From: an uncultured Desulfobacteraceae bacterium
Lineage (GTDB): Bacteria > Desulfobacterota > Desulfobacteria > Desulfobacterales > JAABSP01
NCBI GenBank assembly: GCA_964652715.1
Contig: CAZZBE010000004.1
Location: 1-57,079 of the forward strand
Reading direction: 5' to 3'
DNA: 57,079 nt
Under the pieces are notes generated by a model, which saw only the letters and a program-made list of their open reading frames with translations, did not search any database and was not told the origin of the DNA. The position numbers and the translations under genes were made by a program. How positions within the stretch are numbered: the first letter of the stretch is position 1; the number at the start of each line of letters is the position of its first letter. Below are positions 3,121 through 53,364 of this stretch, in pieces.

Positions 3121-3123
3121 TCG

Positions 3124-22768: not shown

Positions 22769-22780
22769 GGTCAATAATCC

Positions 22781-26434: not shown

Positions 26435-27112
26435 ATGGGAATCCAGGAACGAAAAAAGCGGGAAAGAGAACGACGACGCCAACAGATCATGGTGGCGGCA
26501 AAGCGGGTTTTTTCCGAAAAAGGCCTCAACAAGGCGACCATGGAAGACATCGCCAAAGAGGCGGAATTGAGCCCGGGGACGCTGTATCTGTATTTCAAGA
26601 ACAAAGACGAACTGTTCTCATCGCTCTCGATCCGGATTCTTCAGTACCTCAATATCCGGCTGGAGCACATTACCAACACCGAGGGCGGGAAAAAGCCCAG
26701 GGACCGGATCGAGGCCCTCAAGGAGGCCATGTACGATGTTTACGAATTCGATCCGGTGATGCTCATCAACATGTTCCACCTCCAGTCCAGCGAAACCCTC
26801 AAAAACCTCTCCCCCGAACTGCTCGACAACATAAAGGAACTCTCCCAGAGTTCCATCCAGACCACGGCGAAGCTGTTCGGGAAGGGCATCGAGGAGGGGG
26901 AATTCATCGACGAACATCCCGTGGCCCTGGCGGGGATCGTGTGGGCGATCTTCTCCGGGGTCGTGCTGTGGGAGGAGAGCAAACGGATCATCAACGACGA
27001 GAAAAACTACCTGAAACAGACGCTCGGAACCGCATTCGAGATCTTCGAACGGGGGATCCGGAAAACGCCGGCGAAACAAGGCAATTCGAGGGAGGCAGAT
27101 GGTTCAACATAA
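26435..27112 (+). CDS. TetR-family transcriptional regulator
   Basis: The N-terminal HTH is ATMEDIAKEAELSPGTLYLYFKNKDELF. Confidence 0.9.
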   Translation: MGIQERKKRERERRRQQIMVAAKRVFSEKGLNKATMEDIAKEAELSPGTLYLYFKNKDELFSSLSIRILQYLNIRLEHITNTEGGKKPRDRIEALKEAMYDVYEFDPVMLINMFHLQSSETLKNLSPELLDNIKELSQSSIQTTAKLFGKGIEEGEFIDEHPVALAGIVWAIFSGVVLWEESKRIINDEKNYLKQTLGTAFEIFERGIRKTPAKQGNSREADGST

Positions 27113-27160: not shown

Positions 27161-29197
27161 ATGGCGGAAGAAAAAGAATATGGCGGATCGGAAGCTGAAA
27201 TCGCGGTACACTGGCAGGAAGAAGGGCTGTTCATGCCGTCGGTGGATTTCATCGCCCAGGCGAACATGACCGACATGGGCATCTACGACCGGTTCAGCCT
27301 GGACAATTTCCCCAACTGCTTCAAAGAGTACGCGGACATGCTCGACTGGTACGAATATTGGGATGAAATCCTCGACACCAGCGACGCGCCGTGTTTCAAG
27401 TGGTTCAAGGGGGGCAAGCTCAACGCCTCCTACAACTGCGTGGACCGCCACCTGAAGAAGAACAAGAACAAGACGGCGCTCCATTTCGTCCCCGAACTGG
27501 TAGAAGAAAAGACCGAGCACATCACCTACCAGGAACTCTATGTGCGGGTCAACGAGATGGCGGCCGTGCTTCGGGACTACTGCGGCCTCAAAGCGGGCGA
27601 CCGGGTGACGCTCCATCTTCCCATGACCCCGGAACTGCCCATCACCATGCTGGCCTGCGCCCGGCTGGGCGTCATCCACTCCCAGGTGTTCGGCGGGTTC
27701 AGCGGCAAGGCGGCGGCCGACCGCGTCGTCGACTCCGGATCGGATTACCTCATCACCATGGACGCCTATTACCGGGGCGGCAAGCTGCTCAGCCACAAGG
27801 AAAAGGCGGACGAAGCCGCGGCCGAGGCGGAAAAGGAAGGGCAGAAGCTCAAGAAAGTCCTGATCTGGCAGCGGTATCCCGGCAAGTATTCCTCGGAAGT
27901 CCCCATGGTCGACGGCCGGGACGTGTTTGTCAACGACATCCTGAAGGACTACTACGGCGTCCGGGTCGATCCGGTCCCCATGCCGGCGGAAGCGCCCCTG
28001 TTCCTGATGTACACCTCCGGCACCACCGGCAAACCCAAGGGGTGTCAGCACGGCACCGGCGGCTATCTCGCCTATGTGACCGGCACCTCCAAATACGTCC
28101 AGGACATCCATCCCGAAGACGTCTACTGGTGCATGGCCGACATCGGCTGGATCACCGGCCACTCCTACATCGTCTACGGGCCGCTTTCCCTCTGCGCCTC
28201 GTCCGTCATCTACGAAGGGATTCCCAACTATCCCGACGCCGGACGCTGCTGGCGGATCGCCCAGGATCTGGACGTCAACATTTTCCACACCGCCCCCACC
28301 GCTATCCGGGCCCTGCGGAAGATCGGTCCGGACGAGCCCGCGAAGTACAACTACGACTTCAAGCACATGACCACCGTGGGCGAACCCATCGAGCCGGAGG
28401 TCTGGAAGTGGTATTACAAAGTGGTGGGCAAGGGCAAGGCCGCCATCGTGGACACCTGGTGGCAGACCGAAACCGGCGGGTTCCTCTGCTCCACCCTGCC
28501 GGCCCTCAAGCCCATGAAGCCCGGCAGCGCCGGCCCCGGCATGCCCGGCATCCATTCCATCATCTACGATGAAGACGGCAAGGAGATCCCGCCGGGCGTC
28601 GGCAAGGCGGGCAACATCTGCATCCAGAACCCCTGGCCCGGCATGTTCCAGACCATCTGGGGCGACCGGGACCGGTTCGTGCGCCAGTACTTCGAACGCT
28701 ACTGCAAGGATCCCAAGTCCACGGACTGGCGCGACTGGCCCTATCTGACCGGCGACGCCGCGGTGATGGCCGAAGACGGCTACGTCCGGATCCTGGGCCG
28801 CATCGACGACGTCATCAACGTCTCCGGCCACCGGCTGGGCACCAAGGAGATCGAATCCGCCGCCCTGGTGGTGGAAGAGGTCGCGGAATCGGCGGTCGTC
28901 CCGGTCAAGCACGAGATCAAGGGCAAGGAGCCGGATCTGTACGTCTCCCTCAAACCCGGGTTCGAGGCCACCGAGGCGCTGGAAAAGAAGATCATCGACG
29001 CCATCGTCAGGGAAATCGGCGCCATCGCGAAACCCCGAAAGGTCTGGATCGTGCCCGACATGCCCAAAACCCGGTCCGGGAAGATCATGCGGCGCGTCCT
29101 GGGCGCCATCTCCAACGAATCGGATGTGGGGGATGTCATGACCCTGGCGAACCCCGAAATCGTCGAGCACATCAGCGAAATGGTGGGGAAGAAGTAA
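27161..29197 (+). CDS. acs: acetyl-CoA synthetase (AMP-forming)
   Basis: YTSGTTGKPKG, WWQTETGG, GRIDDVINVSGHRLGT and PKTRSGKIMRR (the regulatory acetyl-lysine context) are present. A strong AAGGAGG SD precedes the start. Confidence 0.93.
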   Translation: MAEEKEYGGSEAEIAVHWQEEGLFMPSVDFIAQANMTDMGIYDRFSLDNFPNCFKEYADMLDWYEYWDEILDTSDAPCFKWFKGGKLNASYNCVDRHLKKNKNKTALHFVPELVEEKTEHITYQELYVRVNEMAAVLRDYCGLKAGDRVTLHLPMTPELPITMLACARLGVIHSQVFGGFSGKAAADRVVDSGSDYLITMDAYYRGGKLLSHKEKADEAAAEAEKEGQKLKKVLIWQRYPGKYSSEVPMVDGRDVFVNDILKDYYGVRVDPVPMPAEAPLFLMYTSGTTGKPKGCQHGTGGYLAYVTGTSKYVQDIHPEDVYWCMADIGWITGHSYIVYGPLSLCASSVIYEGIPNYPDAGRCWRIAQDLDVNIFHTAPTAIRALRKIGPDEPAKYNYDFKHMTTVGEPIEPEVWKWYYKVVGKGKAAIVDTWWQTETGGFLCSTLPALKPMKPGSAGPGMPGIHSIIYDEDGKEIPPGVGKAGNICIQNPWPGMFQTIWGDRDRFVRQYFERYCKDPKSTDWRDWPYLTGDAAVMAEDGYVRILGRIDDVINVSGHRLGTKEIESAALVVEEVAESAVVPVKHEIKGKEPDLYVSLKPGFEATEALEKKIIDAIVREIGAIAKPRKVWIVPDMPKTRSGKIMRRVLGAISNESDVGDVMTLANPEIVEHISEMVGKK

Positions 29198-29418: not shown

Positions 29419-31221
29419 ATGCAAAGCAGCACCATATGGGTATACATATTCCTTGGGCTTTATATCATCTATTGTTTCTACTGGGGGCTGAAGGGGTATT
29501 TCACGGAAAAGACCTCTTCGGGGTACTCCATCGCCGGCCGTTCGATTCCCTTTGTCGCCTTTCTCATGGCGGCGACGGCGGCCTCGTTCTCGGGCTGGAC
29601 CTTTATCGGCCACCCGGGGCTGATCTGGCGGGACGGGTTGGCATACGCCTTTGCGTCCTTTTACGTGTTGACCATTCCCATCACCGGGACGTTTTTCTCG
29701 AAACGGACCTGGCTGCTGGGCAAGCGCTACGGGTTCATCACCCCCGGCGACATGTACGCCTATTACTATAACAACGAAGTGATCCGCTGGCTGGTGGTGG
29801 TCACCGCCGTGCTGTACTCCATTTTCTACTCGGCGGTGCAGCTCATGGCGGCCGGCGCCCTGTTCAACGTTATCGCGGGCGTTCCGTTCACCTTCGGCGC
29901 GCTTTTCCTCGCGTTCATCGTATGGTTTTACGTCTGCACCGGCGGTCTGAAAGCGTCAACGTGGGTGGGGGTGATCCAGTTCATCCTCCTTGTGGGCGGC
30001 ATCATCATCCTCGGGTTCTTCGTCATCCAGGCGAAACAGTTCGGCGGATGGTCCGGTTTTTCCGAGGCTGTCGCCAACCTGGAGAACAAGCAACTCCTGA
30101 AAGTGCCCCGGGTGATCAACTTCGGCCTGGGCGGCGCCGAAGGCGAATCCGCCTGGACGGCGGTGATGATTCTCACCTATATGTTCGCCCTCATGGGGAT
30201 TCAGTCCTCCCCGGCGTTCACCATGTGGACCTTCGGCATCAAGTCCCCGAAGCCCCTGGCCTGGCAGCAGGCCTTCATGTCCACCTTCGTGGTCGGCTTC
30301 GCGCTGTTCTTCTTCACCGCTTTCCAGGGCATGGGCGCCAAGATCCTCGAAATCCAGGGTGTCGCCGAATTCGCCGGCCTAAACAATAGAACCGTCGTGC
30401 CGCTGCTGATGCAACACTTCTTGCCGCCGGTCATGCTGGGGCTGGTGTTCATGGGCGCCATCGCGGCCATTCATTCCACCGCCGCGCCTTACATCGGCAC
30501 CGGCGGGTCGATCCTGCTCCGGGACGTCTACTGGCGGGTCATCAAAAAGCAGAACGTGAGCGACGCCGAGCAGATCTGGGTCAATCGTCTTCTGGCCACC
30601 CTGCTAACCATTCTGGCGCTTGTCGTCGGTCTCACCTCGAAGGCGGCCCTCGTTATTCTGGGAGCGCTGGCGACAGCCTTCGGTTTCGTCATGTACGTGC
30701 TCCTGGTGGGGGTCATCTGGGGCTTCAAGTTCCCCTCCAAGGGGGCCATGCTGGGCGTCCTCGCGGGCATGATCGCGGTGTTTCTGGCCTATAAGATCTG
30801 GCCGAACCCCCTGTCGATGCACGCCGCTTTCTGGGGCACCTTCACCGGTCTGGTCGTCGCGTATCTCGTTAAGGCCGCCGGAGTCAAAGACGACCAGGAA
30901 ACCACCGAACGGCAGGCCGAAATGCGCAAGTGGCTCGACGACGTGGACGAACCCACGGAAAACGGCAAGAAGTGGCGCAAGATCATGAAGATCGCGGTCC
31001 CCGTCTGGTACCTGTTCGCCATTGGCCCTTTCTGCGTCATCGGCAACAACGCGCCCTCCGTGTTCGGTTTCTCCCCGCTCTGGTCCTATCAGATCTTCTG
31101 GTGGATTCTCGGCATCATCATGATGTGGGGCCTTTGCTTCAAGGCGGAAATGTCCACCACCAGCGAGACCCAGATCCAGCGGGCCGACACCGAGCAGAAC
31201 ATCGTGGTCAAGGAAGTCTAA
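29419..31221 (+). CDS. sodium:solute symporter family (SSF/SLC5) transporter, probable monocarboxylate/acetate permease
   Basis: 600 aa, polytopic. The SSF N-terminal pattern is GYSIAGRSIPFVAFLMAATAASFSGWTFIG. It is located directly after acs. Confidence 0.9.
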   Translation: MQSSTIWVYIFLGLYIIYCFYWGLKGYFTEKTSSGYSIAGRSIPFVAFLMAATAASFSGWTFIGHPGLIWRDGLAYAFASFYVLTIPITGTFFSKRTWLLGKRYGFITPGDMYAYYYNNEVIRWLVVVTAVLYSIFYSAVQLMAAGALFNVIAGVPFTFGALFLAFIVWFYVCTGGLKASTWVGVIQFILLVGGIIILGFFVIQAKQFGGWSGFSEAVANLENKQLLKVPRVINFGLGGAEGESAWTAVMILTYMFALMGIQSSPAFTMWTFGIKSPKPLAWQQAFMSTFVVGFALFFFTAFQGMGAKILEIQGVAEFAGLNNRTVVPLLMQHFLPPVMLGLVFMGAIAAIHSTAAPYIGTGGSILLRDVYWRVIKKQNVSDAEQIWVNRLLATLLTILALVVGLTSKAALVILGALATAFGFVMYVLLVGVIWGFKFPSKGAMLGVLAGMIAVFLAYKIWPNPLSMHAAFWGTFTGLVVAYLVKAAGVKDDQETTERQAEMRKWLDDVDEPTENGKKWRKIMKIAVPVWYLFAIGPFCVIGNNAPSVFGFSPLWSYQIFWWILGIIMMWGLCFKAEMSTTSETQIQRADTEQNIVVKEV

Positions 31222-31278: not shown

Positions 31279-31365
31279 ATGAAAAAAGAAGATTATTGGA
31301 TGGTCGGTCTCGTTGCCTTCTCCTGCCTGTTCTGGGCATCTTTCGGAATGGGCGTTTGGGGATAA
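31279..31365 (+). CDS. 28-aa hydrophobic micro-protein (MKKEDYWMVGLVAFSCLFWASFGMGVWG)
   Basis: It is below the track length cut-off. A perfect AAGGAGG (31265-31271) lies 7 nt upstream of the ATG. The peptide has a single TM-like segment and is followed by a hairpin. Confidence 0.4.
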   Translation: MKKEDYWMVGLVAFSCLFWASFGMGVWG

Positions 31366-31385
31366 CCTAACCTGAACCGGTACAG

Positions 31386-31418
31386 AGACCCGCCGATCCC
31401 CCGAGGGTCGGCGGGTCT
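31386..31418 (+). terminator. hairpin AGACCCGCCGA...TCGGCGGGTCT after the symporter/micro-ORF
   Basis: 11-bp GC-rich stem followed by TCTTCTGTC (a weak U-tract). Confidence 0.45.
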
Positions 31419-31453
31419 TCTGTCATGACCACCGGCCGGAGGCCGAATTTCCC

Positions 31454-31822
31454 ATGAGCCGAAAGATATTGATCGTAGACGATGAACCGAGCATCGTCGT
31501 TCCCCTTCAGTTTTTGATGGAGCAAAACGGTTACGAGGTGAAAACCGCCGCCACCGGAGAGGAAGGAATCGAGGCCCTGTCGACCTTTCGGCCCGACGCG
31601 GTGCTGCTCGACATCATGCTGCCGGGCATGGACGGCTTCGAGGCGTGCCAGCGGATCCGGGAGATCCCCGAGGGGCGCGACGCCCGGATCATCTTCCTGA
31701 CGGCCATGGGCCGGGAAATGGACATCGCCAAAGGCATGTCCCTGGAACCGGACGACTACATCACAAAGCCCTTTTCCAACGCGGACGTGGCGGCCCGGGT
31801 CCGGAAGCTCTTTTCCGACTGA
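31454..31822 (+). CDS. stand-alone response regulator receiver (CheY-like)
   Basis: KILIVDDE, LLDIMLPGMDG and DDYITKPF are present. The length is 122 aa. Confidence 0.92.
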   Translation: MSRKILIVDDEPSIVVPLQFLMEQNGYEVKTAATGEEGIEALSTFRPDAVLLDIMLPGMDGFEACQRIREIPEGRDARIIFLTAMGREMDIAKGMSLEPDDYITKPFSNADVAARVRKLFSD

Positions 31823-31853
31823 GACCGGGCAAGGACGGATCGGCAGGTTTCGG

Positions 31854-34022
31854 ATGAATCCGCGCAACAAATTCTGGTGGTTCGCCGGCGTCTCCATCGG
31901 CATCACCGCCCTCATCATCGCCATCCTCTTCATTGTTTTCTGGCGGCAACTCTCCCCCAGCGAAAAAACGCTGCTCTTCAGCCTGTTCAAAAACCATTTC
32001 GCTTACATCTTCATCGCCCTGTTCCTGATGCTGACCGGGTTCGTGTTCGCCATGGACGCCATGTTCCACAACTACATCATCCCGGTCTCCAAACTGGCGG
32101 AGGAAGTGGCGGTGATCCATTCGGTCAACCCCTCCCACCGGATCCGGATGGAGGGCAGCCGGGATATCGGCCGGTTGATCCGGGCTCTCAACGAGGGCGC
32201 CGACAATGTCGAAGCCCTCCGGCGCAACGTCTCCCAGAAGATCCAGGCGGCCAAATCCGAGGCCGAGGAGGAGAAGAACCTCCTGGCGTCCTTCATGTCC
32301 GAATTGCCGGAGGCCGTTCTCATCTGCAACGCCGACGGCAGGATCCTTTTCTACAACAAGCGGGCCCGGGAGTTTCTCGAAGCCAACGGCGGCCCGTCGC
32401 AAACCGACGGCGCCGACGGCCGGTACATCGGCCTGGGCCGGTCCGTCTTCAGCGTCGTGGACGAGCACCTGATCCTCCACGCCCTGGACGAGATCGCCGA
32501 AAAGCTCGAACGCCAGGAGGCCGGCGTGGCCGCCTATTTCGTTCTGGTGGGCAAAGAGGGGCGGCTGCTGCGGGTCGAGGCCGTGCCGATTCTGAACAAG
32601 GAAGATCCCCGGCGGGTGGACGGTTTCATTCTCATCCTCTACGACATCACCGACCGGATCGAGACCGAACGGCAGGTCGATTTTCTGCTCCAGACGCTGG
32701 TGCGACGGTTCCGGTCCTCCCTGGCCAGCATCCGCTCGGCCATCGAGGCCATCATCGAGTACCCCCGGATGGAAGAACGGCAACTGGACAATTTCCGGAA
32801 AATCATCCACCAGGAAACGGTGGTGCTGGGCGACGCCCTGGACAAGACGGCCGAAGAGTACGACCGGTACGCGGAGACCCACTGGCCCCGGGTCCACATG
32901 CGGGTGGGCGATCTGTTCACCACCATCCAACGGAAGGCCAAAGAAAAACTGGACGTCGTTCTCAAGGTCAAAGCCCCCGAGGCGACCTGCTGGGTGAAGA
33001 TCGACTCCTACGCCATGGTGCTGGCCGTCCTTTACGTGCTGAAACGCCTCAAGGAGAGCACCGGCGGAAAAAAATTCGAATGCCGGTTCGACCGGAAGGA
33101 GCGGTTCGTCAACGTCGATCTCGTCTGGAAGGGCGAACCCATCCCCATCGAGACCCTCCGGAAATGGGAAACCGATCCCCTGGTGCTCAAGGCCGAAGGC
33201 CTCGGGCTTTCTCTCCGGGAGGTCATGGAGCACCACGACGCCCAGCTCTGGTGTCCGTCCTGCAAGGAGGATCGCAAACGGTCCGCCCTGCGGCTCTTTC
33301 TTCCCCTGACCCAGGCGCCGGGCGCCGAAATCTCCGGCGGCGCCGGCGTGGTGCCGGAGGGGCGGCCCGAGTTTTACGACTTCGACCTTTTCAACCAGCC
33401 CGGTCAGACCCCCGAGCTGGACAACCAGCCCCTGGGGTTCCTTACCTGCACGGTCTTCGACACCGAGACCACGGGGCTCGATCCCAAGGGCGGGGACGAG
33501 ATCATCTCCATCGGCGCGGTACGCATCGTCAACGGACGGCTGCTCACCGGCGAGATTTTCGATCAATTGGTTGACCCCCGGCGTCCTTTGCCGTATGAAT
33601 CGGTCAAGGTGCACGGCATTCAGCCGGAGATGCTCAGGGGGAAACCGACCATCGACAAGGTGTTGCCGATGTTTCACGGGTTCGCCGAAGAGACGGTGCT
33701 GGTGGGGCACAACGCGGCCTTCGACATGCGCATGCTCCAGGTGAAGGAGCGCCGGACCGGGGTGCGGTTCATCAATCCGGTTCTCGACACGCTTCTCCTT
33801 TCAGCGGTGGTCCACCCCGCCCAGAGCGATCACAGCCTGGAGGCCATCGCCCGGCGGCTGGGGATCCGGATCAAGGGACGCCACACGGCACTGGGGGATG
33901 CGGTGTCCACCGGCGAGATCTTTCTGAAGCTCGTCCCCCTGCTGGAGAAGGCGGGGATCCGAACCCTGAAGGCGGCGCGCCAGGCGTCGGAAAAGACCTA
34001 TTACGCGCGCTTGAAGTATTAG
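31854..34022 (+). CDS. membrane sensor: 2 TM, HAMP, PAS, degenerate kinase core, fused C-terminal DEDDh (DnaQ-like) 3'-5' exonuclease
   Basis: Exo I is VFDTETTGLD, Exo II is GHNAAFDMRML and Exo III is HTALGDAVSTGEIF. The DHp-like helix reads VRRFRSSLASI, with Arg where the phospho-accepting His of SHELRTPL would sit. Confidence 0.85.
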   Translation: MNPRNKFWWFAGVSIGITALIIAILFIVFWRQLSPSEKTLLFSLFKNHFAYIFIALFLMLTGFVFAMDAMFHNYIIPVSKLAEEVAVIHSVNPSHRIRMEGSRDIGRLIRALNEGADNVEALRRNVSQKIQAAKSEAEEEKNLLASFMSELPEAVLICNADGRILFYNKRAREFLEANGGPSQTDGADGRYIGLGRSVFSVVDEHLILHALDEIAEKLERQEAGVAAYFVLVGKEGRLLRVEAVPILNKEDPRRVDGFILILYDITDRIETERQVDFLLQTLVRRFRSSLASIRSAIEAIIEYPRMEERQLDNFRKIIHQETVVLGDALDKTAEEYDRYAETHWPRVHMRVGDLFTTIQRKAKEKLDVVLKVKAPEATCWVKIDSYAMVLAVLYVLKRLKESTGGKKFECRFDRKERFVNVDLVWKGEPIPIETLRKWETDPLVLKAEGLGLSLREVMEHHDAQLWCPSCKEDRKRSALRLFLPLTQAPGAEISGGAGVVPEGRPEFYDFDLFNQPGQTPELDNQPLGFLTCTVFDTETTGLDPKGGDEIISIGAVRIVNGRLLTGEIFDQLVDPRRPLPYESVKVHGIQPEMLRGKPTIDKVLPMFHGFAEETVLVGHNAAFDMRMLQVKERRTGVRFINPVLDTLLLSAVVHPAQSDHSLEAIARRLGIRIKGRHTALGDAVSTGEIFLKLVPLLEKAGIRTLKAARQASEKTYYARLKY

Positions 34023-34067
34023 TCACAGCGGCGCCGGCAGAGACAGCGATGAAGAGAGCTTGGAATT

Positions 34068-36398
34068 ATGAGCAAGGAGATTTACAAATATCTGGCCGGC
34101 GTGCCCCCTTTTTCCGAACTGCCCAGGGGGGAGCTGGGCAGGATCATCGACAAGACCGCCGAGGTCGTCCATCCGGCCGGAACCACCCTGGCGGTCCAGG
34201 CCCGGACCCGGATCGAGAACGTGCTGGTCATCCGGAGCGGCGTTCTGAAGCTCTATTACGACCGGGACGGAGAAGAGATCCATGTCCGCCGTCAGAAGCG
34301 GGGTCGGATTTTCGGCGGCATTTCGATTCTCATGAACGGCGGGTTTTCGGTGCGGACCGTGGAGGTGGAGGAGGAGGCCACGGTCTATGCCATCCCGGCG
34401 GACCTGTTCCAGGAGATCTGCGACCGGCGCCGGCGGTTTTACGAGTTTTTCGTCCGGGACTTCAGTGAGCAGATGGACGACGAATCCTACGCCGACATCG
34501 TCGCCGCCAACCAGGCCTTTCGGTTTCTGCGGGACGTTCCCCCCTTCTCCTTTCTGGAATCCGACGAACTGGAACGGGTCGCCGAAAAGGCGATCCGGGC
34601 GCATTACCCGGCCGACACCGTGCTGTTCGTCCAGGGACGGTCCAGGGTCGATCACCTCCACGTCATCGAAAAAGGGGCGGCCGAACGCTACTACGAGGAA
34701 AAGGACAAGAAGACGCTGCGCGGCGTGATCAGCGAAGGGGACCTGTACGGCGGCATTTCCATGCTCATGAACAACGGCGTGGCGGTCCGGACCCTCCGGA
34801 CCAACGAAAAAACCTATTTCTACCTCATCCCCCGGTCGGTTTTCCTCGACCTCTGTCAGCGGTTCGAGGCGTTTTCCGAGTATTTCTCGGACACCTTCGG
34901 CAAACGGATGCTGGATCGCTCCTACGCCGAGATCGTGGCCAAAACCATCGAGTCCCGGGAAGAGGCCCTCCAGTTCTTCAATCGTCCTGTTTCCAGCTGC
35001 TACAACCCCCATGTCCTTTCCTGCCGGATGGATCTCTCCATCCAGGAGGCGGCGCGGACCATGAGCGAACAGAAGTGCTCCTCCATTCTCGTTCGGAACG
35101 CCGAAAGCGACTATGTGGGGATCCTGACGGACAACGATCTGCGGCGGAAGGTGATCGCGGAAGGGTACGACATCCGGAAGCCCGTGAGCGACGTGATGAC
35201 CGCGCCCCTCAAGACCATCTCCGCCGGCGCGGAAATTTTCGAAACCTTCATGACCATGATGCGCGACCATATCAAGCACCTGGCCGTGGTCGACACCGAC
35301 GAGCGGGTGGTGGGCGTGGTCGGCAACCGGGACCTCCTGACCGCGCAGGGCCGGTCCCCTTTCTTTTTCATTCGGGACATCAACGACACCGAGGGGGTCG
35401 AACCGCTCCGGGACAAATACCGGGAACTCCCCGAAGTGGTTCAGAACCTGATCCAGAGCGGCGCCAAGTCGGACAACATCAACAGTTTCATCACCAGCAT
35501 CTCGGACAGCATCCTGGAGAAGCTGGTGGCCGATGCCGTCCGGGAGGTCGGAGAACCGCCCTGCCGGTTCGTCTTCATGATCATGGGCAGCGAAGGCCGC
35601 AAGGAACAGACCCTCAAAACGGACCAGGACAACGCCATCGTTTTCGAAGACGTCGAAGAAGACAAGGCGAAGGAGACCCAGGCCTATTTCCTGAAACTGG
35701 GCGAGACGGTCTGCGACTGGCTCAATGAAGTGGGATACGCCTTCTGCGAGGGCGGGGTCATGGCCAAAAACCGCAAATGGTGCCAGCCCCTGGCGGTCTG
35801 GAAAGGCCATTTCAGCTCCTGGATCCACGCGGCCGAGGCCGAGGACCTCCTCCAGGCGTCCATTTTTTTCGATTTTCGCACCGGCTACGGCGACGCGGCC
35901 CTGGTGGAGGACCTGCGGGCGTTCCTCTTCAGCTCCCTGGGGGGATGGTCCGGGTTTTTCCGCCACCTGGCCGAAAACGCGCTCCATTTCAAACCGCCCC
36001 TGGGGTTTTTCAGGAGTTTCGTGGTGGAGTCCAAGGGTCGGCACCGGAACAAATTCGACATCAAGAGCGCCATGACGCCCATCGTCGATTTCGCCCGGAT
36101 CTACGCTTTGAAACACAAAATCCCGGAGACCAACACCCTGGAGCGGCTCCACGGACTTTATCTCAAGAAATTCCTCAGCTGGGACGAGTACAACGAACTG
36201 GATCAGGCCTACGGGTTCCTGATGCAGATCCGGTTCCTGCGCCAGACCACCGCCGTGCTGGAAGAGGAGGCGCCGCCGGACAACTATGTGAATCCCAAAA
36301 AGCTTTCCGTCATCGAACAGACCATGCTCAAAGAGATCTTCAAGCGGACGGAGAAGTTTCAGGGAAAATTAAACTTTGATTTTATTGGAATCATCTGA
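34068..36398 (+). CDS. 2x cNMP-binding, CBS pair, DUF294-type (pol-beta fold) nucleotidyltransferase
   Basis: Two cNMP-like beta-rolls and two CBS motifs (VGILTDNDL, VGVVGNRDLL) are present. The NTase motif is MGSEGRKEQTLKTDQDN (GS..DxD), followed by a helical DUF294_C-like tail. Confidence 0.85.
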   Translation: MSKEIYKYLAGVPPFSELPRGELGRIIDKTAEVVHPAGTTLAVQARTRIENVLVIRSGVLKLYYDRDGEEIHVRRQKRGRIFGGISILMNGGFSVRTVEVEEEATVYAIPADLFQEICDRRRRFYEFFVRDFSEQMDDESYADIVAANQAFRFLRDVPPFSFLESDELERVAEKAIRAHYPADTVLFVQGRSRVDHLHVIEKGAAERYYEEKDKKTLRGVISEGDLYGGISMLMNNGVAVRTLRTNEKTYFYLIPRSVFLDLCQRFEAFSEYFSDTFGKRMLDRSYAEIVAKTIESREEALQFFNRPVSSCYNPHVLSCRMDLSIQEAARTMSEQKCSSILVRNAESDYVGILTDNDLRRKVIAEGYDIRKPVSDVMTAPLKTISAGAEIFETFMTMMRDHIKHLAVVDTDERVVGVVGNRDLLTAQGRSPFFFIRDINDTEGVEPLRDKYRELPEVVQNLIQSGAKSDNINSFITSISDSILEKLVADAVREVGEPPCRFVFMIMGSEGRKEQTLKTDQDNAIVFEDVEEDKAKETQAYFLKLGETVCDWLNEVGYAFCEGGVMAKNRKWCQPLAVWKGHFSSWIHAAEAEDLLQASIFFDFRTGYGDAALVEDLRAFLFSSLGGWSGFFRHLAENALHFKPPLGFFRSFVVESKGRHRNKFDIKSAMTPIVDFARIYALKHKIPETNTLERLHGLYLKKFLSWDEYNELDQAYGFLMQIRFLRQTTAVLEEEAPPDNYVNPKKLSVIEQTMLKEIFKRTEKFQGKLNFDFIGII

Positions 36399-36408
36399 TA
36401 AAAAACCC

Positions 36409-36516
36409 CGAGGGACAAAGGGACAAAGGGACCGAGGGACAAAGTAAGAATCCAGGCAAGCGACTTCCAAGACCCTTTGTCCCTTTGTCCCTTTGTCCCT
36501 CAGTCCCTTTTTTTTA
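36409..36516 (+). repeat. long hairpin built from tandem octamers (GGACAAAG x4 vs CTTTGTCC x4) followed by T8; probable terminator
   Basis: The left arm is 36412-36444 and the right arm is 36473-36507, with a loop of about 28 nt and a T-run at 36508-36516. Confidence 0.6.
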
Positions 36517-36536
36517 CTTTTGAAAGGAGGCCATTG

Positions 36537-37151
36537 ATGGCGGTGATTACGATTTCCAGGCAGTTCGGCGCCGGCGGCAGAACCCTGGGAAAAATGGTGG
36601 CGGATAAACTCGGATACGGCTTCTACGACAACGAACTGATTCAGATGGTGGCGGAAAAGGCCAAGGTCTCCAAGACATGGGTGGAGTCGATGGAGAAAGA
36701 GGCCGGCGGCGCCTTCCAGAGGTTTATCACCGGCCTGGTCTCCAAAAGCATGGTGGATCGGATCCTGAGCGGCGAACGGGGATACATGGATGAGGAAATC
36801 TACGTGGACATGCTCCACAAGGTCATCGCCAAGATCGCCGAAGAGGACAACGCCGTGATCGTCGGCCGGGGCGGTCAGTACATCCTTCAGGGCCGTCGGG
36901 ACGTCTTTCACGTCCTGCTGGTCAGCGCCTTCGATGACCGGATCGGCTTCATGGAGAAGCATTACAATATGTCCCACAAACAGGCCCATCAGGCCGTGTC
37001 GGCGGACGACCGGCGGCGGGTCAACCTTTACCGGAAGTTCGGCCGCCAGGATTACGAAAAACCGGGCCTGTACCACCTCATCCTCAACATGAGCCTCTTC
37101 GATCTGGACAAGGCGTGCAGCCTGTTGCTCAAACTCGTCCGGTCCCGATGA
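36537..37151 (+). CDS. cytidylate-kinase-like family P-loop protein
   Basis: The N-terminus is MAVITISRQFGAGGRTLGKMVADKLGYGFYDNELI. The track start at 36477 lies within the octamer hairpin. Confidence 0.72.
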   Translation: MAVITISRQFGAGGRTLGKMVADKLGYGFYDNELIQMVAEKAKVSKTWVESMEKEAGGAFQRFITGLVSKSMVDRILSGERGYMDEEIYVDMLHKVIAKIAEEDNAVIVGRGGQYILQGRRDVFHVLLVSAFDDRIGFMEKHYNMSHKQAHQAVSADDRRRVNLYRKFGRQDYEKPGLYHLILNMSLFDLDKACSLLLKLVRSR

Positions 37152-37163
37152 CCCTTTGACGCC

Positions 37164-38270
37164 TTGGCGATCAGGAGACTTTTCGTCGACAGAGCGGTGG
37201 CCCGCCATCCCCGGACCGAGGCCATCCGCTCCCGACTCCGTCTGCCGGCCGAACCGGTTTCCGACCCCCGGGAGGTCTATCAATCGGTTTCGGCCGCGGA
37301 CGATCCGGCCGCCCGGGGCAAATCGGTCCTCTACCTGACCCGCAACAAAGGCCCCTTTATCCGGAAGTGCCCCGGCACCCGCTCCTACACCTGCTGCGAT
37401 TATTACATCCTCCATATCGGAACCTATTGCGTCATGGACTGCGCCTACTGCATCCTCCAGGCTTATTTCCATCCCCCGGTTCTCCAGTTTTTCGTCAATC
37501 TCGAAGAGATGACCGAGGCCCTGGACCGGCTTTTCAGAGGCGATCCGCCGGTACGCCGGATCGGCACCGGCGAGTTCACCGACAGCATGATCTGGGAACC
37601 CTGGACCGGTCTGTCCGAGCTGCTGGTCCCCCGGTTCGGCCGTCAGTCCCGGACGGTTCTGGAACTGAAAACCAAAACCACGGCCGTCGACGCTTTGGAG
37701 GGCTTGGACCACGACCGCAAGACCATCATGGCCTGGTCCCTCAACACGGAACGGGTCATCCGGTCCGAGGAACGGGGGACGGCGTCCCTGTCCGCCCGGC
37801 TGGCGGCGGCGGCCCGTTGCGGGGAATGGGGCTATCCCCTGGCCTTCCACTTCGACCCCATGGTGATCTACGACGGCTGCGAGGCGGAGTACGACGCCGT
37901 GGCGGCGCGGCTGTTCGACAGCGTCTCCCCGGACAATGTGGTCTGGATCAGCCTGGGCACGTTCCGGTTCATGCCGGCTCTCAAACCCGTGATCCAGCAG
38001 CGGTTCCCCGACTCCCGGATCGTCTACGGCGAGTTCATCACCGGCCTCGACGGCAAAATGCGCTACTTCAAGCCGCTGCGCATCGCCCTCTACCGGAAAA
38101 TGGCCGAGGCCATCCGGCGCCGGGCCCCCCACGTCGCCGTGTATTTCTGCATGGAGGACGACGAGGTGTGGAAAAAGGCGCTGGGGTTCACGCCCGAGGA
38201 GCGGGGGGGGCTGCCGGGGATGCTCGACGAGGCGGCGCGTCGGTGTTGCGGCCTTACGGTGGACTTTTGA
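37164..38270 (+). CDS. spore-photoproduct-lyase-family radical SAM protein
   Basis: The CxxxCxxC cluster CVMDCAYCILQAYF is preceded by RKCPGTRSYTCCDYYIL. The size is about 370 aa. Confidence 0.72.
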   Translation: MAIRRLFVDRAVARHPRTEAIRSRLRLPAEPVSDPREVYQSVSAADDPAARGKSVLYLTRNKGPFIRKCPGTRSYTCCDYYILHIGTYCVMDCAYCILQAYFHPPVLQFFVNLEEMTEALDRLFRGDPPVRRIGTGEFTDSMIWEPWTGLSELLVPRFGRQSRTVLELKTKTTAVDALEGLDHDRKTIMAWSLNTERVIRSEERGTASLSARLAAAARCGEWGYPLAFHFDPMVIYDGCEAEYDAVAARLFDSVSPDNVVWISLGTFRFMPALKPVIQQRFPDSRIVYGEFITGLDGKMRYFKPLRIALYRKMAEAIRRRAPHVAVYFCMEDDEVWKKALGFTPEERGGLPGMLDEAARRCCGLTVDF

Positions 38271-38319
38271 AACCCATAAACGCCGGTTCTGGATATGGCA
38301 TAGGAGGATAAGCAAAATA

Positions 38320-38574
38320 ATGGTTTCCGACGAAATGGGCGCTCGGCTGCACGACAGAGCAACGCGAGGCCACACACTGACGGCCGAGGAGCGCCAGTTG
38401 CTGGAACAATGGTACCAGCAACTGGATCGCGCGGAAGCTGCCGCTCTGAATATCGCTATCGATGAGAACCTGCCTGAAGAACACAAATTGCAAGAGCAGA
38501 TTGACGCCGTGTTAGCCCGGATTGGGTCTGTTTCTGAACAAATCCAAAAATTAACTGAAGAAAAAAATCTTTGA
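38320..38574 (+). CDS. hypothetical small coiled-coil protein (possibly frameshifted)
   Basis: 84-aa ORF at the left edge of an AT-richer islet. There is no good SD. The helical heptad-like sequence continues in another frame to 38642. Confidence 0.3.
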   Translation: MVSDEMGARLHDRATRGHTLTAEERQLLEQWYQQLDRAEAAALNIAIDENLPEEHKLQEQIDAVLARIGSVSEQIQKLTEEKNL

Positions 38575-38697
38575 AAAACGATATTGCGCGTCTTCATGAA
38601 CAGTTGTCAGAAAAATCGCTGACACAGTCCGCACAATTTTAGACAGTTTGGTTTGATTTCACACTCAATTGGTTGTTGCTGAAGGTTAACCAAAGAT

Positions 38698-39897
38698 ATG
38701 GACACATTGCCGCCATTTCTTAAAAATAAGCTGCGTGACCGGACGCCCGCCGATGCAAATCCGCTTGCATACGCTCTTGTGAAACAGGCTTTGTCAGCTC
38801 AGGCATCGGAAGGTTCCCTTTCGGAACGCCTTGCGGCCGCGTTTGATCTAATCGTGGCAAGCAAATTCTATCAGTATGTCGAACCAGAGGGGTGGCTATG
38901 GTGCGGCAACTCTGGAAAGGATTTCTATCCGATTCTGAATGTTTGCCCCCATTGCGTCCTCGATAATCAATTTGTGCAAACCGAAGGACACAAACCAGGA
39001 TCGGGACAAATCGGTCCGACAACTGCTTTGGCCCTACGGGAAATAATCGCCGCCTATTTTCATCTGACAGGGAAATCAGATTGTTTTGTGTACAGGGCAA
39101 GTGAACCGATAGATCTCGCAGTGGTGGACAGAGAAAACAAGATTCTTTTCATTGCGGAAGTTAAGGCGGCGCCGTTGTTTACACCTCCCCTAGTTCGGCA
39201 ACATGCAACAGCGTCAATGCAAACCCAACTCGCAATGCCGCTGAAGCATTCCCTGGGCGTCGCTCGTGGATTGCATAAAGCAGAAGTGGGTTTGTATATC
39301 CCTGGTCTTGAAGCGCCTTTTGAAATTTTCCTGGCCCCCGGAACCGTTGGCCAAGCAATGCCTTTGGATCAACCGTTGGCGGCTGTTGTTGAGCGCGATT
39401 CCGCCATCGCCAATCGCTTTTTTAAGACTTGGCGTCGCATGTGGCGTTCGTATCAATGCAAAGATTCCACGACGCCTCTTTACTGGTTTTGCGGCGCTTG
39501 TGGCCGTCCGTCCAATCCAGGGGAGGGCTGGCCCCGGCAAGCGAATGGACGACCGAGGGGAACCATTTCCGATGGCAAGACAAGTGTCGGAATCGACAGA
39601 ACGGATGACATAAAAAAAGCGACATTCCAGGCCCTAAAACTTGGCGTGGAGAACAGGCGCAAGGACCCGTCCCCTTGGAGACTGCTCATTGGACTGGCAA
39701 GCAATCTTCACGCTTCGCGCCATTATGACGGTTATCTACGTCCTTATGAAGACTTAATATGGGGTTGGGCTGACGCTGCTGAAAATGACCGCGATCTTTA
39801 CAATCTTTTCGACGGGATTGTCTCGTTTACGCGCAGCCACATGCGGGACAAATGGCTTGCGAGCACGCTAGACTGGCACGGGAGTCGGGATGCGTAA
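38698..39897 (+). CDS. candidate type II restriction endonuclease (PD-ExK core plus Cys4 site)
   Basis: EPIDLAVVDRENKILFIAEVK gives a D139...E154-x-K156 arrangement. CxxC pairs lie at C83/C86 and C265/C268. Its stop overlaps the methyltransferase start (ATGCGTAA). Confidence 0.6.
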   Translation: MDTLPPFLKNKLRDRTPADANPLAYALVKQALSAQASEGSLSERLAAAFDLIVASKFYQYVEPEGWLWCGNSGKDFYPILNVCPHCVLDNQFVQTEGHKPGSGQIGPTTALALREIIAAYFHLTGKSDCFVYRASEPIDLAVVDRENKILFIAEVKAAPLFTPPLVRQHATASMQTQLAMPLKHSLGVARGLHKAEVGLYIPGLEAPFEIFLAPGTVGQAMPLDQPLAAVVERDSAIANRFFKTWRRMWRSYQCKDSTTPLYWFCGACGRPSNPGEGWPRQANGRPRGTISDGKTSVGIDRTDDIKKATFQALKLGVENRRKDPSPWRLLIGLASNLHASRHYDGYLRPYEDLIWGWADAAENDRDLYNLFDGIVSFTRSHMRDKWLASTLDWHGSRDA

Positions 39898-41095
39898 AAT
39901 ATCAATTTCACTGAAAGCGTTCAGCCATGTGCCGAGGAATGTCGGGCCAAAGGTTCAACAGCGCATCGACGCGCTCAAGGTCGGCCAGAAAATGCAAGAT
40001 TTGCCGGAGGAGCTGTGGCATGAAAGCTTTCGGTATTACGTTAAAGAAGATCCAACGAGAAAAGGCGGCCCTAATCTTCGCCTTGTCAGACTCGACCCTC
40101 GAAGACCTTCTCTTACCGTCACTGGGTTTATTTTTAATAAATTCGTGCATCCGGTTGAAAACAGACATATTACGCCGCGCGAGGCGGCTCGACTACAGGG
40201 ATTTCCTGACGATTTTTTGTTCCACGGCGCCTTGACGAGCGTGCAACGTCAGGTCGGAAACGCGGTGCCGGTGCAGTTGGCGACCGTCGTGACCGAATCT
40301 GTTTTGGCGCATCTGGAAAAACATCATCCTCTGGGCCTGGGCTCTCAAGTATTTTCTTCCGGCTGTTTACCTTCAATTAGCTTGTTTTCCGGGGCAGGCG
40401 GGATGGATCTCGGCGTTCTTAATGCGCAGCGTGGCAAATGGATTTTCGATTTGAAGAGATGCGTGGAACTCGATCATGATTGCTGCGAAACCCTTCGGAA
40501 AAATTTTGGATCAAAAGTGAACGTGGTTGAAAAAGATATCTCGACAATTGATCCCGATGAAACGCTGGCGCTATGCGAGGCGGACAACGCCTTGCTTCCG
40601 CTTGTGATTGGCGGTCCTCCTTGTCAGGCTTTTAGCCAGGCCGGGAAGCAGAAAGGCAAGCAGGATGACCGAGGGAAGCTCATTTTCGAATTTTTAAGGT
40701 TCATTCAGGAATTGCGGCCCGTTTATTTCATCATGGAGAATGTGTCAAACCTGCGGGGCGTGGCAAAAGGCGAGCTGCTTCAAGAGATACAGGATCGCAT
40801 AAACGATATGGGATACAACTTCACCTGCAACCTGCTTTGCGCTGCAGATTATGGCGCCGCTCAGTTGCGGCGGCGGCTGTTTTTTATTGGCGTCCGAAAA
40901 CCCTATCCCGCGGTTCGGCCGCCTCTGCCAACCCATGGAAAAACCGGGGACATTTTTTTTGTCCATAAACCGTATGTTGGCGTCGGTGAGGCATTTAAGG
41001 GCCTGCCTCCTTTAAAAAACGCTAATTTTGATTCCAAAATTGTGGTCCGCCCGGTTATGCGAGAGGCGCTCTTAAAACGTCATCTATGCTGTTAG
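39890..41095 (+). CDS. C5 cytosine DNA methyltransferase, circularly permuted (motifs IX-X precede I-VIII)
   Basis: Motif IX ITPREAARLQGFPDDF and X GNAVPV are at residues 93-127. Then come I LFSGAGG (165-171), IV GGPPCQAFS (241-249), VI ENV (282-284) and VIII QLRRR (325-329). Confidence 0.92.
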   Translation: MRKISISLKAFSHVPRNVGPKVQQRIDALKVGQKMQDLPEELWHESFRYYVKEDPTRKGGPNLRLVRLDPRRPSLTVTGFIFNKFVHPVENRHITPREAARLQGFPDDFLFHGALTSVQRQVGNAVPVQLATVVTESVLAHLEKHHPLGLGSQVFSSGCLPSISLFSGAGGMDLGVLNAQRGKWIFDLKRCVELDHDCCETLRKNFGSKVNVVEKDISTIDPDETLALCEADNALLPLVIGGPPCQAFSQAGKQKGKQDDRGKLIFEFLRFIQELRPVYFIMENVSNLRGVAKGELLQEIQDRINDMGYNFTCNLLCAADYGAAQLRRRLFFIGVRKPYPAVRPPLPTHGKTGDIFFVHKPYVGVGEAFKGLPPLKNANFDSKIVVRPVMREALLKRHLCC

Positions 41096-41105
41096 AGGAA
41101 GCTTC

Positions 41106-41345
41106 ATGCCCACCGGAAGCCCCCGAAATCGCCGGTTGTCGGCCCTGTTTTGGCTGGGGCTGCTCCTGTTCAACTACCCTCTCCTCTCCCTGTTCGACGC
41201 CTCGGTCGTCGTCTTCGGCCTGCCGCTTCTTTATGCCTATCTTTTCGGCGTCTGGCTGCTGCTGATTCTCTGCCTGGCCCTGACGGCCCGGCGCCGCCCG
41301 ACCCCGCCCCCGCCCGACGCCCCCATGCAGGACGACCCGTGCTGA
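41106..41345 (+). CDS. small 2-TM membrane protein overlapping the start of the transporter-kinase gene
   Basis: 79 aa with hydrophobic segments LSALFWLGLLLFNYPLLSLF and LLYAYLFGVWLLLILCLAL. Its TGA overlaps the downstream GTG (GTGCTGA). Confidence 0.55.
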   Translation: MPTGSPRNRRLSALFWLGLLLFNYPLLSLFDASVVVFGLPLLYAYLFGVWLLLILCLALTARRRPTPPPPDAPMQDDPC

Positions 41346-53355: not shown

Positions 53356-53364
53356 CTTTTCCCC

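Follow-up and report, generated by a model that had tools for sequence, protein, structure and literature searches.

We analyzed a stretch of 57,079 nucleotides from an uncultured Desulfobacteraceae bacterium (contig CAZZBE010000004.1 of assembly GCA_964652715.1), referred to here as the window, and found in it a three-gene module that pairs a predicted nucleotidyltransferase (NTase) with a predicted DEDDh exonuclease. The genes encode a stand-alone CheY-like receiver (REC), a membrane protein of 722 amino acids (aa) that joins a sensory pseudokinase to the exonuclease (P5), and an NTase of 776 aa (P6). We judge it reasonably probable that the NTase and the phosphodiesterase act as one functional unit, that both are catalytically competent and that their output concerns carboxylate uptake. 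DUF294/COG2905 NTases and their exonuclease partners are a known but biochemically unsolved gene pair: we found no paper on the pair that assigns it a biochemical activity, and authors working on it in Pseudomonas putida still described its function as unclear in September 2026 (PMC9927547; bioRxiv 10.64898/2026.09.07.749794), in agreement with what an original prediction, made from the sequence of the window, had stated. That prediction placed the three co-directional genes at positions 31454-36398, directly after a TetR gene, acs, a sodium:solute symporter family (SSF) gene and a micro-open reading frame (ORF); these coordinates are exact, and all of the stated elements are present there on the plus strand. 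What the window offers is a previously undescribed, well-populated, sensor-fused variant of the pair, along with its likely cognate kinase.

The evidence for a single functional unit comes from a survey of DUF294 loci. The survey was anchored on the NTase motif EQT[LF]x[TS]DQDN, used one genome per species and kept the best 80 loci (numbered L001 and so on), which include Desulfobacterota, Bacteroidota, Actinomycetota, Cyanobacteria, Calditrichota, Planctomycetota, Verrucomicrobiota, Lentisphaerota, Kiritimatiellia, Spirochaetota, Ignavibacteria, Acidobacteriota and others. Among the immediate co-directional neighbors of DUF294, Pfam identified RNase_T in 22 of 60 upstream and 6 of 59 downstream genes, Metallophos in 2 upstream and 8 downstream, and PHP and HD in 2 upstream genes each. 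Every locus was then classified with hidden Markov models (HMMs) built from these Pfam-verified neighbors; an HMM from the P5 fusion family alone barely detected the Bacteroidota partner exonucleases. By this classification a phosphoesterase is adjacent or fused to DUF294 in 56 of the 80 loci: a DEDDh enzyme in 36, a metallophosphoesterase in 15 and a PHP enzyme in 5. The neighbors in L033 and L054 are metallophosphoesterases, and one further locus beyond the 56 (L071) has a seven-transmembrane HD protein as the partner. Three of the five PHP partners are fused N-terminally to the NTase, and proteins P0164, P0183 and P0193 are built likewise. The DEDDh, metallophosphoesterase and PHP HMMs had no match elsewhere in ~1 Mb of flanking sequence, which provides an internal control for the linkage. 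The NTase and phosphoesterase genes are tightly adjacent, with frequent start/stop overlap. The exchange of the partner among non-homologous phosphoesterases, together with the fusions, is a classic signature of one shared biochemical role. The neighborhood statistics bear out the linkage described in the original prediction, and extend it to many phyla, and the swapping of DEDDh, metallophosphoesterase, PHP and HD partners lends support to its idea of a writer/eraser pair, which we refine below with regard to the writer's fold.

The type of partner tracks the architecture of the writer: cNMP-CBS writers occur with DEDDh enzymes, and sCache_2-PAS-CBS writers, which are membrane proteins, occur with a metallophosphoesterase or a PHP enzyme. 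The nearest solved relative of the metallophosphoesterase partner is the RNA lariat debranching enzyme Dbr1 (E 4e-5), and those of the PHP partner are TrpH/RNase AM-type 5'-3' exoribonucleases (E 3e-22 to 6e-18). It had been proposed that the simpler versions of the pair lack the membrane sensor and receiver. The eraser of the window is indeed set apart by its fusion to a membrane sensor, but many writers elsewhere carry sCache_2 and PAS domains, and the Bacteroidota partner exonucleases have a C-terminal transmembrane helix. We also observed that the second flavor of the pair, with sCache_2-PAS-CBS-DUF294 and either a Dbr1-like metallophosphoesterase or an N-terminally fused TrpH-like PHP domain, often adjoins a different SSF symporter (L029, L030, L033, L048, L052, L057, L062, L065, L069, L082 and others; L051, L075 and L083).

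The survey bears directly on whether the two genes are coupled at all. P5 could be a DNA-repair or replication-type exonuclease that neighbors P6 through inherited synteny, and two observations would suit such an account: the nearest sequence relatives of its exonuclease domain are proofreading domains, and the gene order uvrC-mdh-...-purC-TetR around the locus is syntenic among close relatives. However, the linkage spans Desulfobacterota, Bacteroidota, Actinomycetota, Verrucomicrobiota, Planctomycetota, Spirochaetota and others with differing gene orders and phosphoesterase folds, the Pseudomonas genes are co-regulated as one operon (PMC9927547), and the sensor fusion argues for signaling. 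The 80-locus survey has brought chance adjacency close to refutation, and we find it hardly credible.

The same loci point to carboxylate uptake as the output. In 39 of the 80 loci, an SSF symporter gene is found no more than 8 kb from DUF294. The original prediction had tied the pair to acs and actP; the symporter part of this claim stood, but an acs-like ligase lies within 8 kb in only 23 of the 80 loci and the symporter of the window is not ActP. The conserved link is with SSF carboxylate symporters and a CrbS-like SLC5 kinase, more than with acs itself. Published phenotypes, too, follow the transporter and not Acs. Cofitness of COG2905 members with DUF4212/SSF transporters has been reported for both Shewanella and P. 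stutzeri (Price et al., bioRxiv 10.1101/072470). The PA3232-PA3235 neighborhood cited in the original prediction is co-regulated, and the pair is a direct target of CrbS/R (MxtR/ErdR) in Pseudomonas (PMC9765439). In P. putida, MxtR/ErdR (CrbS/R) is the direct activator of an operon made up of PP_0354 (cNMP-CBS-NTase) and PP_0353 (RNase_T), and deletion of PP_0353 impairs growth on pyruvate like deletions of actP-I and yjcH, whereas deletion of PP_0354 does not (PMC9927547; bioRxiv 10.64898/2026.09.07.749794). Another link to acetyl-CoA was noted in L044 (634-2031), where a fusion of AcetylCoA_hyd_C with a GNAT acetyltransferase lies directly upstream of the DUF294 gene.

We next consider the enzymes themselves. 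P6 (34068-36398, plus strand) begins with tandem cyclic nucleotide monophosphate (cNMP)-binding-like domains (34170-34832; Pfam cNMP_binding, E 1.4e-25, two stretches). These are followed by a CBS pair (34986-35345; Pfam CBS, E 1e-19, two stretches), with CBS-pair proteins in the PDB matching residues 307-429. The catalytic half (35424-36383) comprises the DUF294 NTase domain (PF03445; 154.8 bits, cutoff 21) and the DUF294_C helical substrate-binding domain (PF10335; 153.4 bits, cutoff 22.5). In the cNMP cassette ("GGIS..VRT") the arginine is retained and the ribose-binding glutamate is replaced by glycine; the cassette is hence atypical and a cyclic nucleotide is not assured as the ligand. 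The NTase motif, G507-S508 ... D519-Q-D521, conforms to G-x11-D-x-D and is complemented by a third acidic residue, D602. Among 60 homologs at 30-51% identity, D602 is invariant and conservation of G507, S508, D519 and D521 reaches 90% or more, and an exhaustive search with P6 returned 1,991 clusters (50% identity) at E <= 1e-30. The P6 NTase is probably active, judging from this conservation. The two cNMP domains, the CBS pair and the pol-beta-fold NTase that had been read from the sequence were all recovered by Pfam and by the motif, and the active site (90-100% conserved) is retained among orthologs.

To place the NTase we turned to structure, as a sequence profile of the P6 catalytic half found no relative in the PDB, only spurious helical-bundle matches. 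The AlphaFold2 (AF2) model of full-length P6 (pLDDT 91) has two beta-barrels that resemble the tandem cyclic-nucleotide-binding domains of PKA and PKG, and a Foldseek-type search with it returned PKA/PKG cNMP-domain matches alone. The catalytic half was accordingly modeled by itself (AlphaFold; pLDDT 93, pTM 0.90) and used as the Foldseek query. Its best match was the Legionella Rab-AMPylase DrrA (6yx5_B; E 1.2e-8, TM score 0.67). Both domains of Escherichia coli GlnE also matched (E 1.8e-8 to 2.5e-7, TM scores 0.60-0.66; 0.66 for 1v4a and 0.62 for 3k7d), and the alignments to DrrA and GlnE cover ~340 columns. Aminoglycoside nucleotidyltransferases came next, with TM scores of ~0.33, and MntA-HepT structures were among the weak matches. 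Terminal uridylyltransferases (TUTases) were non-significant (E > 0.5, TM score 0.19), and the list contained no CCA-adding enzyme, poly(A) polymerase, cGAS, CD-NTase, DncV, OAS or GGDEF-like match. As modeled, the P6 NTase fold is GlnE/DrrA-like, that is, protein-AMPylase-like, and not RNA-polymerase-like or cGAS-like. Consistent with this assignment, DUF294_C has been grouped with the C-terminal domains of GlnD and GlnE and with KNTase in a HEPN-related clan (PMC3710099). A role in nucleotidylation was first predicted by Aravind and Koonin (1999), according to the citation in PMC5715377.

These comparisons argue against a diffusible second messenger, in which P6 would make a free linear or cyclic (oligo)nucleotide, the phosphodiesterase would degrade it and an effector would couple it to acetate or carboxylate metabolism. 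Such a pathway would make sense of sensor domains on both enzymes, the Dbr1-like partner hints at 2'-5' bonds, and the DEDDh (Orn), HD, PHP and metallophosphoesterase families include degraders of nucleotide messengers and nanoRNA. By contrast, none of the cGAS, DncV, OAS or GGDEF-like folds was recovered with P6, a helical substrate-binding domain of this large size is typically found in NTases whose acceptor is a macromolecule or is otherwise bulky, and no conserved effector gene was evident in the DUF294 neighborhoods. P6 had zero matches in PADLOC and received no defense-system assignment; P5 matched only generic DEDDh domain models there. We regard a free messenger as very unlikely.

The partner enzyme in the window, P5 (31854-34022, plus strand), ends in a complete DnaQ/RNase T-like DEDDh 3'-5' exonuclease domain (33453-33923, residues 534-690; Pfam RNase_T, E 1.7e-37), as originally predicted. 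Its nearest sequences in the PDB are the exonuclease domain of PolC (2p1j, E 9e-31) and DnaQ. A search with P5 returned at least 120 clusters at ~100% query coverage and 50-93% identity, and the conservation counts given here for the P5 family come from an alignment of 118 of them. All five active-site residues, D536 and E538 (DTETTG), D624 (HNAAFD), and H677 and D682 (HTALGDA), are conserved in the 118 homologs and are likewise kept in the short partner exonucleases from other phyla. On the strength of this active site, the domain is predicted to be a catalytically competent DEDDh enzyme. The named P5 matches belong to Desulfobacterales or to other metagenome-assembled genomes of Thermodesulfobacteriota. 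Judging from these clusters, the exonuclease fusion is a conserved Desulfobacterales family of at least 118 clusters, and it is new here.

Upstream of the exonuclease, P5 resembles a membrane-bound sensor kinase. Its N-terminus (31854-32228) has two transmembrane helices (hydrophobic segments at residues 8-29 and 48-70), separated by a short outer loop of ~18 aa, and a HAMP-like segment. A match to the NCBIfam WalK model covers residues 75-472 (E 4e-16) and starts at model positions where we presume the HAMP segment to lie; the Pfam HAMP model itself did not detect the P5 N-terminus. A PAS domain follows (32280-32657, residues 143-268; Pfam PAS_4, E 7e-6, over residues 150-268), a region also matched by PAS_9 and PAS_8. 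Residues ~270-485 (32661-33308) form a degenerate histidine-kinase module with DHp and CA-like parts; the VicK structure 4i5s matches residues 246-484 (E 6e-8). However, the phospho-accepting histidine of VicK corresponds to R284 in P5, its N-box asparagine to an arginine and its G1 aspartate to a tryptophan. None of these catalytic residues occurs in any of the 118 family members: position 284 is arginine in 78, lysine in 17, threonine in 14, glutamine in 4, isoleucine in 4 and methionine in 1; position 398 of the N-box is Q, R, K, H, E or C; and the G1 position is tryptophan (W425) in 116. The G2 glycines are not conserved across the family either. The DHp helix is kept, with R287 and E298 invariant and S289 and R294 near-invariant. 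Because the overall DHp and CA homology persists and the catalytic residues are lost, the module is best described, from sequence, as a family-wide pseudokinase and not a kinase, as the original prediction had called it. A near-invariant linker motif, S-R-P-E-F-Y-D-F-D-L-F-x-Q-P-G-Q (33360-33407, residues 503-518), joins the pseudokinase to the exonuclease. Most of its positions are conserved in 104-118 of the 118 members, with Y508, L512 and N514 varying more, and the short partner exonucleases that stand alone lack the motif. The receiver gene (31454-31822, plus strand; Pfam Response_reg, E 4e-28) precedes P5. Its phosphorylation residues, read from the sequence, are complete (D9, D10, D53, T83 and K105), and an ortholog lies immediately upstream of P5 in 8 of 16 P5-type genome loci.

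A candidate for the kinase that phosphorylates REC lies ~5 kb downstream of the module (~41336-44068, plus strand; start codon inferred from alignment), beyond the span covered by the original prediction, which missed it. Its HisKA and HATPase_c domains are intact by Pfam. The N-terminal ~620 aa match PDB entry 10ed_A, deposited as "histidine kinase" (E 5e-78), and contain at least 11 hydrophobic segments with a weak, collinear SSF-HMM alignment; on the basis of these matches we assign the protein as a CrbS/CbrA-like SLC5(SSF-like) histidine kinase, presumably of the SLC5-STAC type. Orthologs with 60-69% identity are syntenic with the module in L001, L009, L014, L018, L023 and L025, making seven loci with the window. 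The kinase of the window is 69% identical to the one downstream of DUF294 in L001 and 60% identical to that of L025, and in L009 and L023 the kinase gene interrupts the pair, with the exonuclease gene on one side and the DUF294 gene on the other. In L025, a REC ortholog (57% identity) lies directly downstream of, and co-oriented with, the 940-aa HisKA/HATPase_c kinase gene. The same locus encodes a 746-aa protein (2566-4803) in which a PAS-pseudokinase module, 34% identical to P5 residues 129-484, is fused to DUF294/DUF294_C instead of an exonuclease; no exonuclease was found on this 11-kb contig. By sequence comparison, the PAS-pseudokinase input module is portable between eraser and writer, and the kinase at 41336-44068 is probably the cognate kinase of REC.

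Taken together, these features suggest a model in which the three genes would form the regulatory core of a two-enzyme nucleotidylation switch on an acetate/pyruvate/lactate-class SSF symporter system. P6 would be the writer, a GlnE/GlnD/DrrA-class NTase gated by its cNMP-like and CBS (adenosyl-ligand) domains. P5 would be the eraser, an active DEDDh phosphodiesterase that removes the nucleotide, or short nucleotide chain, installed by P6. The likeliest substrate would be a protein hydroxyl at the membrane, within or controlling the neighboring symporter apparatus; uptake would be shut down by writing and regained by erasing. The eraser would be held at the membrane by its two transmembrane helices and HAMP segment, with the PAS domain as a further part of the wiring, and the dead histidine-kinase module could be the platform on which the stand-alone receiver, once phosphorylated, docks and through which its signal is transmitted. 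REC itself would be phosphorylated, probably by the CrbS-like SLC5-STAC kinase 5 kb downstream. Four parts of this model are inferred: one and the same bond as the target of both enzymes, a protein as the substrate, the symporter as the output and the docking of phosphorylated REC on the pseudo-DHp.

Our tentative reading, at somewhat short of an even chance, is this writer/eraser cycle: a hydroxyl on a protein of the symporter apparatus, or close to it, would receive a nucleotide from P6 and lose it again through P5. It is favored by the GlnE/DrrA fold, the precedent of GlnD, which is in the same NTase clan as P6 and carries its own HD "eraser", the membrane anchoring and the asymmetry of the P. 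putida phenotypes, which would be the pattern expected if the writer inhibits and the eraser relieves. Several findings weigh against it. Every partner phosphoesterase belongs to a family that acts on nucleic acids or nucleotides (DnaQ/PolC-like DEDDh, Dbr1-like, and TrpH/RNase AM-like PHP), and we know of no DEDDh enzyme that de-AMPylates a protein. About half of the P5-type loci are without REC, and the loss of the canonical ribose-binding glutamate leaves the ligand of the P6 cNMP domains uncertain. Some 23 of the 80 DUF294 loci have no adjacent phosphoesterase, ~10 of these being on truncated contigs; in L019 and L021, which read acs - second acyl-CoA ligase - SSF - 785-aa DUF294, no phosphoesterase was detected nearby. 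The Bacteroidota NTase-exonuclease pairs have no SSF gene nearby. Finally, deletions of PP_0353 and of PP_0354 both slow growth on propionate, which is not simple antagonism (PMC9927547; bioRxiv 10.64898/2026.09.07.749794).

The P. putida genetics also fit a second scheme, in which the NTase nucleotidylates the nuclease itself to switch it off and the nuclease, as the output, processes RNA for symporter expression: loss of the nuclease affects growth on pyruvate and loss of the NTase does not (PMC9927547). The tight adjacency, frequent start/stop overlap and fusions of the two genes are also compatible with a regulated nuclease. MNT/HEPN pairs work in this way, MntA-HepT structures were among the weak fold matches of P6, and DUF294_C falls in a HEPN-related clan (PMC3710099). 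However, the NTase would have to recognize four unrelated nuclease folds, and the nuclease of the window already receives input through its TM-HAMP-PAS-pseudokinase region and REC, making a second dedicated regulator less needed. Moreover, in L025 the pseudokinase module sits on the NTase, and there is no toxicity signature. We consider a MntA-HepT-like arrangement decidedly unlikely.

A third scheme has RNA as the substrate, and we first describe the genes upstream of REC. The acs-symporter cluster is headed by a TetR-family regulator (26435-27112, plus strand; Pfam TetR_N, E 7e-18), present at the equivalent position in L001, L002 and L003. An acetyl-CoA synthetase (acetate-CoA ligase) gene follows (27161-29197, plus strand), which passes NCBIfam NF001208 (773 bits, cutoff 657) and TIGR02188 (761 bits, cutoff 725). 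The SSF transporter gene (29419-31221, plus strand; Pfam SSF, E 1.5e-37) was considered as a possible ActP, which we rejected since the ActP models score 62-74 bits against cutoffs of 750-1099; the specific NCBIfam symporter models for ActP, MctP and VC_2705 types all fell far below cutoff. The 222-nt gap upstream of the gene is too small for a YjcH (DUF485) partner. By these models the symporter is a generic SSF protein. It is followed by a 28-aa micro-ORF with a single transmembrane segment (MKKEDYWMVGLVAFSCLFWASFGMGVWG; 31279-31365, plus strand), conserved in position and in its pattern, M-x-x-E-D ... F-[GS]-x-G-x-[WF]-G, directly 3' of the SSF gene in the window and in 13 of 13 other P5-type loci examined (L001 9348-9434; L002 8817-8903; also among L005-L035). 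It has zero matches in NCBIfam and is probably an unannotated accessory subunit of the symporter. L001 (9687-9917) and L002 (9043-9264) have in addition, between the micro-ORF and REC/P5, a conserved protein of 73-76 aa with two CxxC pairs (zinc-ribbon-like) and a C-terminal transmembrane helix; the window is without it.

Between the micro-ORF and REC lies a GC-rich, very stable hairpin (~31383-31422, plus strand). The surrounding 101 nt (31360-31460) fold at -45.7 kcal/mol (z -3.96), and none of 200 shuffles folded equally well; comparable hairpins lie 3' of the micro-ORF in L001 (with a U tract), L002 and L007. A consensus terminator scan did not call it, because its tail is T-poor. The hairpin is possibly a terminator, an attenuator or a stabilizer of the RNA 3' end. 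Given its position, REC, P5 and P6 may form a transcription unit of their own, separate from or attenuated relative to the genes upstream. A conserved, very stable hairpin that marks the probable 3' end of the symporter/micro-ORF transcript is what an RNA writer/eraser could work on: P6 would add untemplated 3' nucleotides, or build a short oligonucleotide, and P5 would trim, with tail length on, for example, a symporter transcript ending at the hairpin setting how stable the mRNA of the symporter genes is or how well it is translated. In eukaryotes, GLD-2 and PARN form an analogous pair. The partner enzymes all come from nucleic-acid phosphodiesterase families (PolC/DnaQ-near DEDDh, Dbr1-like, and TrpH/RNase AM-like PHP), Price et al. 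speculated that COG2905 is required for symporter expression (bioRxiv 10.1101/072470), and the P. putida authors speculated on mRNA degradation (PMC9927547). However, the NTase model matches protein AMPylases well but CCA-adding enzymes, poly(A) polymerases and TUTases not significantly, and DUF294_C shares its clan with the substrate-binding domains of GlnD, GlnE and KNTase (PMC3710099). There is no obvious need for membrane-anchored enzymes with an RNA substrate, no RNA-binding domain was detected, and Rfam and tRNA scans of the window were both empty. We consider an RNA substrate doubtful.

The interpretation put forward in the original prediction is partly supported overall, and neither of the two outcomes that it had named as refuting, a lack of conserved linkage and non-conserved NTase active-site residues, was observed. 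In its most far-reaching form, the writer/eraser cycle on a protein would have DEDDh, Dbr1-like and TrpH-like PHP enzymes acting as protein de-nucleotidylylases against a GlnE/DrrA-like writer, in a widespread and hitherto unrecognized cycle of reversible (oligo)nucleotidylation that switches SSF carboxylate transporters, with control by a CrbS-like kinase, in Desulfobacterales, through phosphorylated REC on the dead-kinase module; taken as a whole, this is an unlikely proposal. If a writer/eraser cycle does act on transporters, it would constitute a new layer of post-translational control over short-chain fatty-acid uptake, with bearing on anaerobic acetate cycling and, in Vibrio and Pseudomonas, on the metabolism between host and pathogen, and nuclease folds could gain a new catalytic role. 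DUF294/COG2905 is a large family found in many bacterial phyla, and the Pseudomonas operon is among the genes most strongly dependent on CrbS/R, the regulator of the acetate switch. The Desulfobacterales variant separates input (REC and pseudokinase) from catalysis and points to a specific kinase, making the signaling logic testable; together, the sensor-fused variant and the pattern of partner displacement make a long-standing DUF problem directly accessible to experiment.

Several features of the flanking sequence were also noted. We discarded a 742-aa ORF on the minus strand (36369-38597) as probably spurious, since Pfam gave no match to it and L003, whose P5 is 100% identical, has plus-strand genes there. 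The real genes of this interval appear to lie on the plus strand and to encode a Cytidylate_kin2-like protein (36477-37151; E 6e-51), with a similar gene after DUF294 in L003, L004 and L005, and a 314-aa protein (37367-38311) of a family not recognized. Further downstream, a 399-aa ORF without a Pfam or NCBIfam match (38698-39897) shares 8 nt with the beginning of the gene for a C-5 cytosine DNA methyltransferase (39890-41095), in a region of locally low GC content (0.53); 38698-41095, which separates the module from the kinase, could be a mobile insertion, of the restriction-modification or another kind. Upstream, at 22160-24007, a small Ras/Arf-like GTPase and then a DUF4388(PatA_N)-cNMP-binding protein make up an unrelated conserved signaling cluster; the pair, followed by a PilZ protein, is also found in L001 and L002. 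Two adjacent cyclic di-GMP turnover proteins, EAL-CBS-GGDEF (773 aa) and PAS-PAS-GGDEF-EAL (692 aa), are encoded on the minus strand at 51034-55443, adjoining a methyl-accepting chemotaxis protein and a solute-binding protein.

The closest known counterpart of the module is the Pseudomonas pair PP_0354/PP_0353 (also Pflu5625 and PA3233/PA3232). It consists of the same two enzyme families as P6 and P5, adjacent and co-directional, in the same physiological setting of acs, an SSF-type carboxylate permease and an SLC5-STAC sensor kinase (PMC9927547, PMC5715377, PMC9765439, bioRxiv 10.64898/2026.09.07.749794). The Pseudomonas exonuclease is short and soluble and control is transcriptional, via CrbR, whereas that of the window is sensor-fused and accompanied by a stand-alone receiver. 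In addition, the NTase of the window has two cNMP-like domains, the exonuclease gene comes before the NTase gene, and in place of ActP/YjcH the permease is a different SSF protein with a 28-aa accessory micro-protein.

With regard to catalysis, the nearest precedents are protein-modifying enzymes. GlnD and GlnE share with P6 the G-x11-D-x-D NTase core followed by a helical substrate-binding domain, GlnE being a top structural match, and in both a writer is coupled to an eraser (the HD domain of GlnD, the second NTase domain of GlnE) and to small-molecule sensor domains. The sensors there are ACT domains as opposed to the cNMP-like and CBS domains of P6, and the eraser of the window is a separate DEDDh exonuclease. 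DrrA/SidM of Legionella, the best structural match to the P6 catalytic module, provides a precedent for writer and eraser as separate proteins of unrelated folds, its counterpart SidD being PP2C-like; it differs in being a secreted effector that acts on host Rab GTPases, with no metabolic or sensor context. In MntA-HepT, a nuclease is kept under control by an NTase that has a HEPN-clan partner or domain and that (oligo)AMPylates a tyrosine. MntA is a minimal NTase and HepT a HEPN RNase with a toxin-antitoxin role and no sensor domains, and the fold match to P6 is weak.

On the input side, the comparison is with the CrbS/CbrA-type SLC5-STAC kinases, a kinase of presumably the same architecture being syntenic with the module in the window. 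A CrbS-type kinase in Proteobacteria controls acs, actP and the DUF294-exonuclease operon transcriptionally (PMC5715377), and the link in the window is one of gene neighborhood. In contrast to the CrbS/CbrA systems, the receiver of the window has no DNA-binding output and is paired with a pseudokinase-exonuclease, an arrangement that would route the signal post-translationally and not through transcription.

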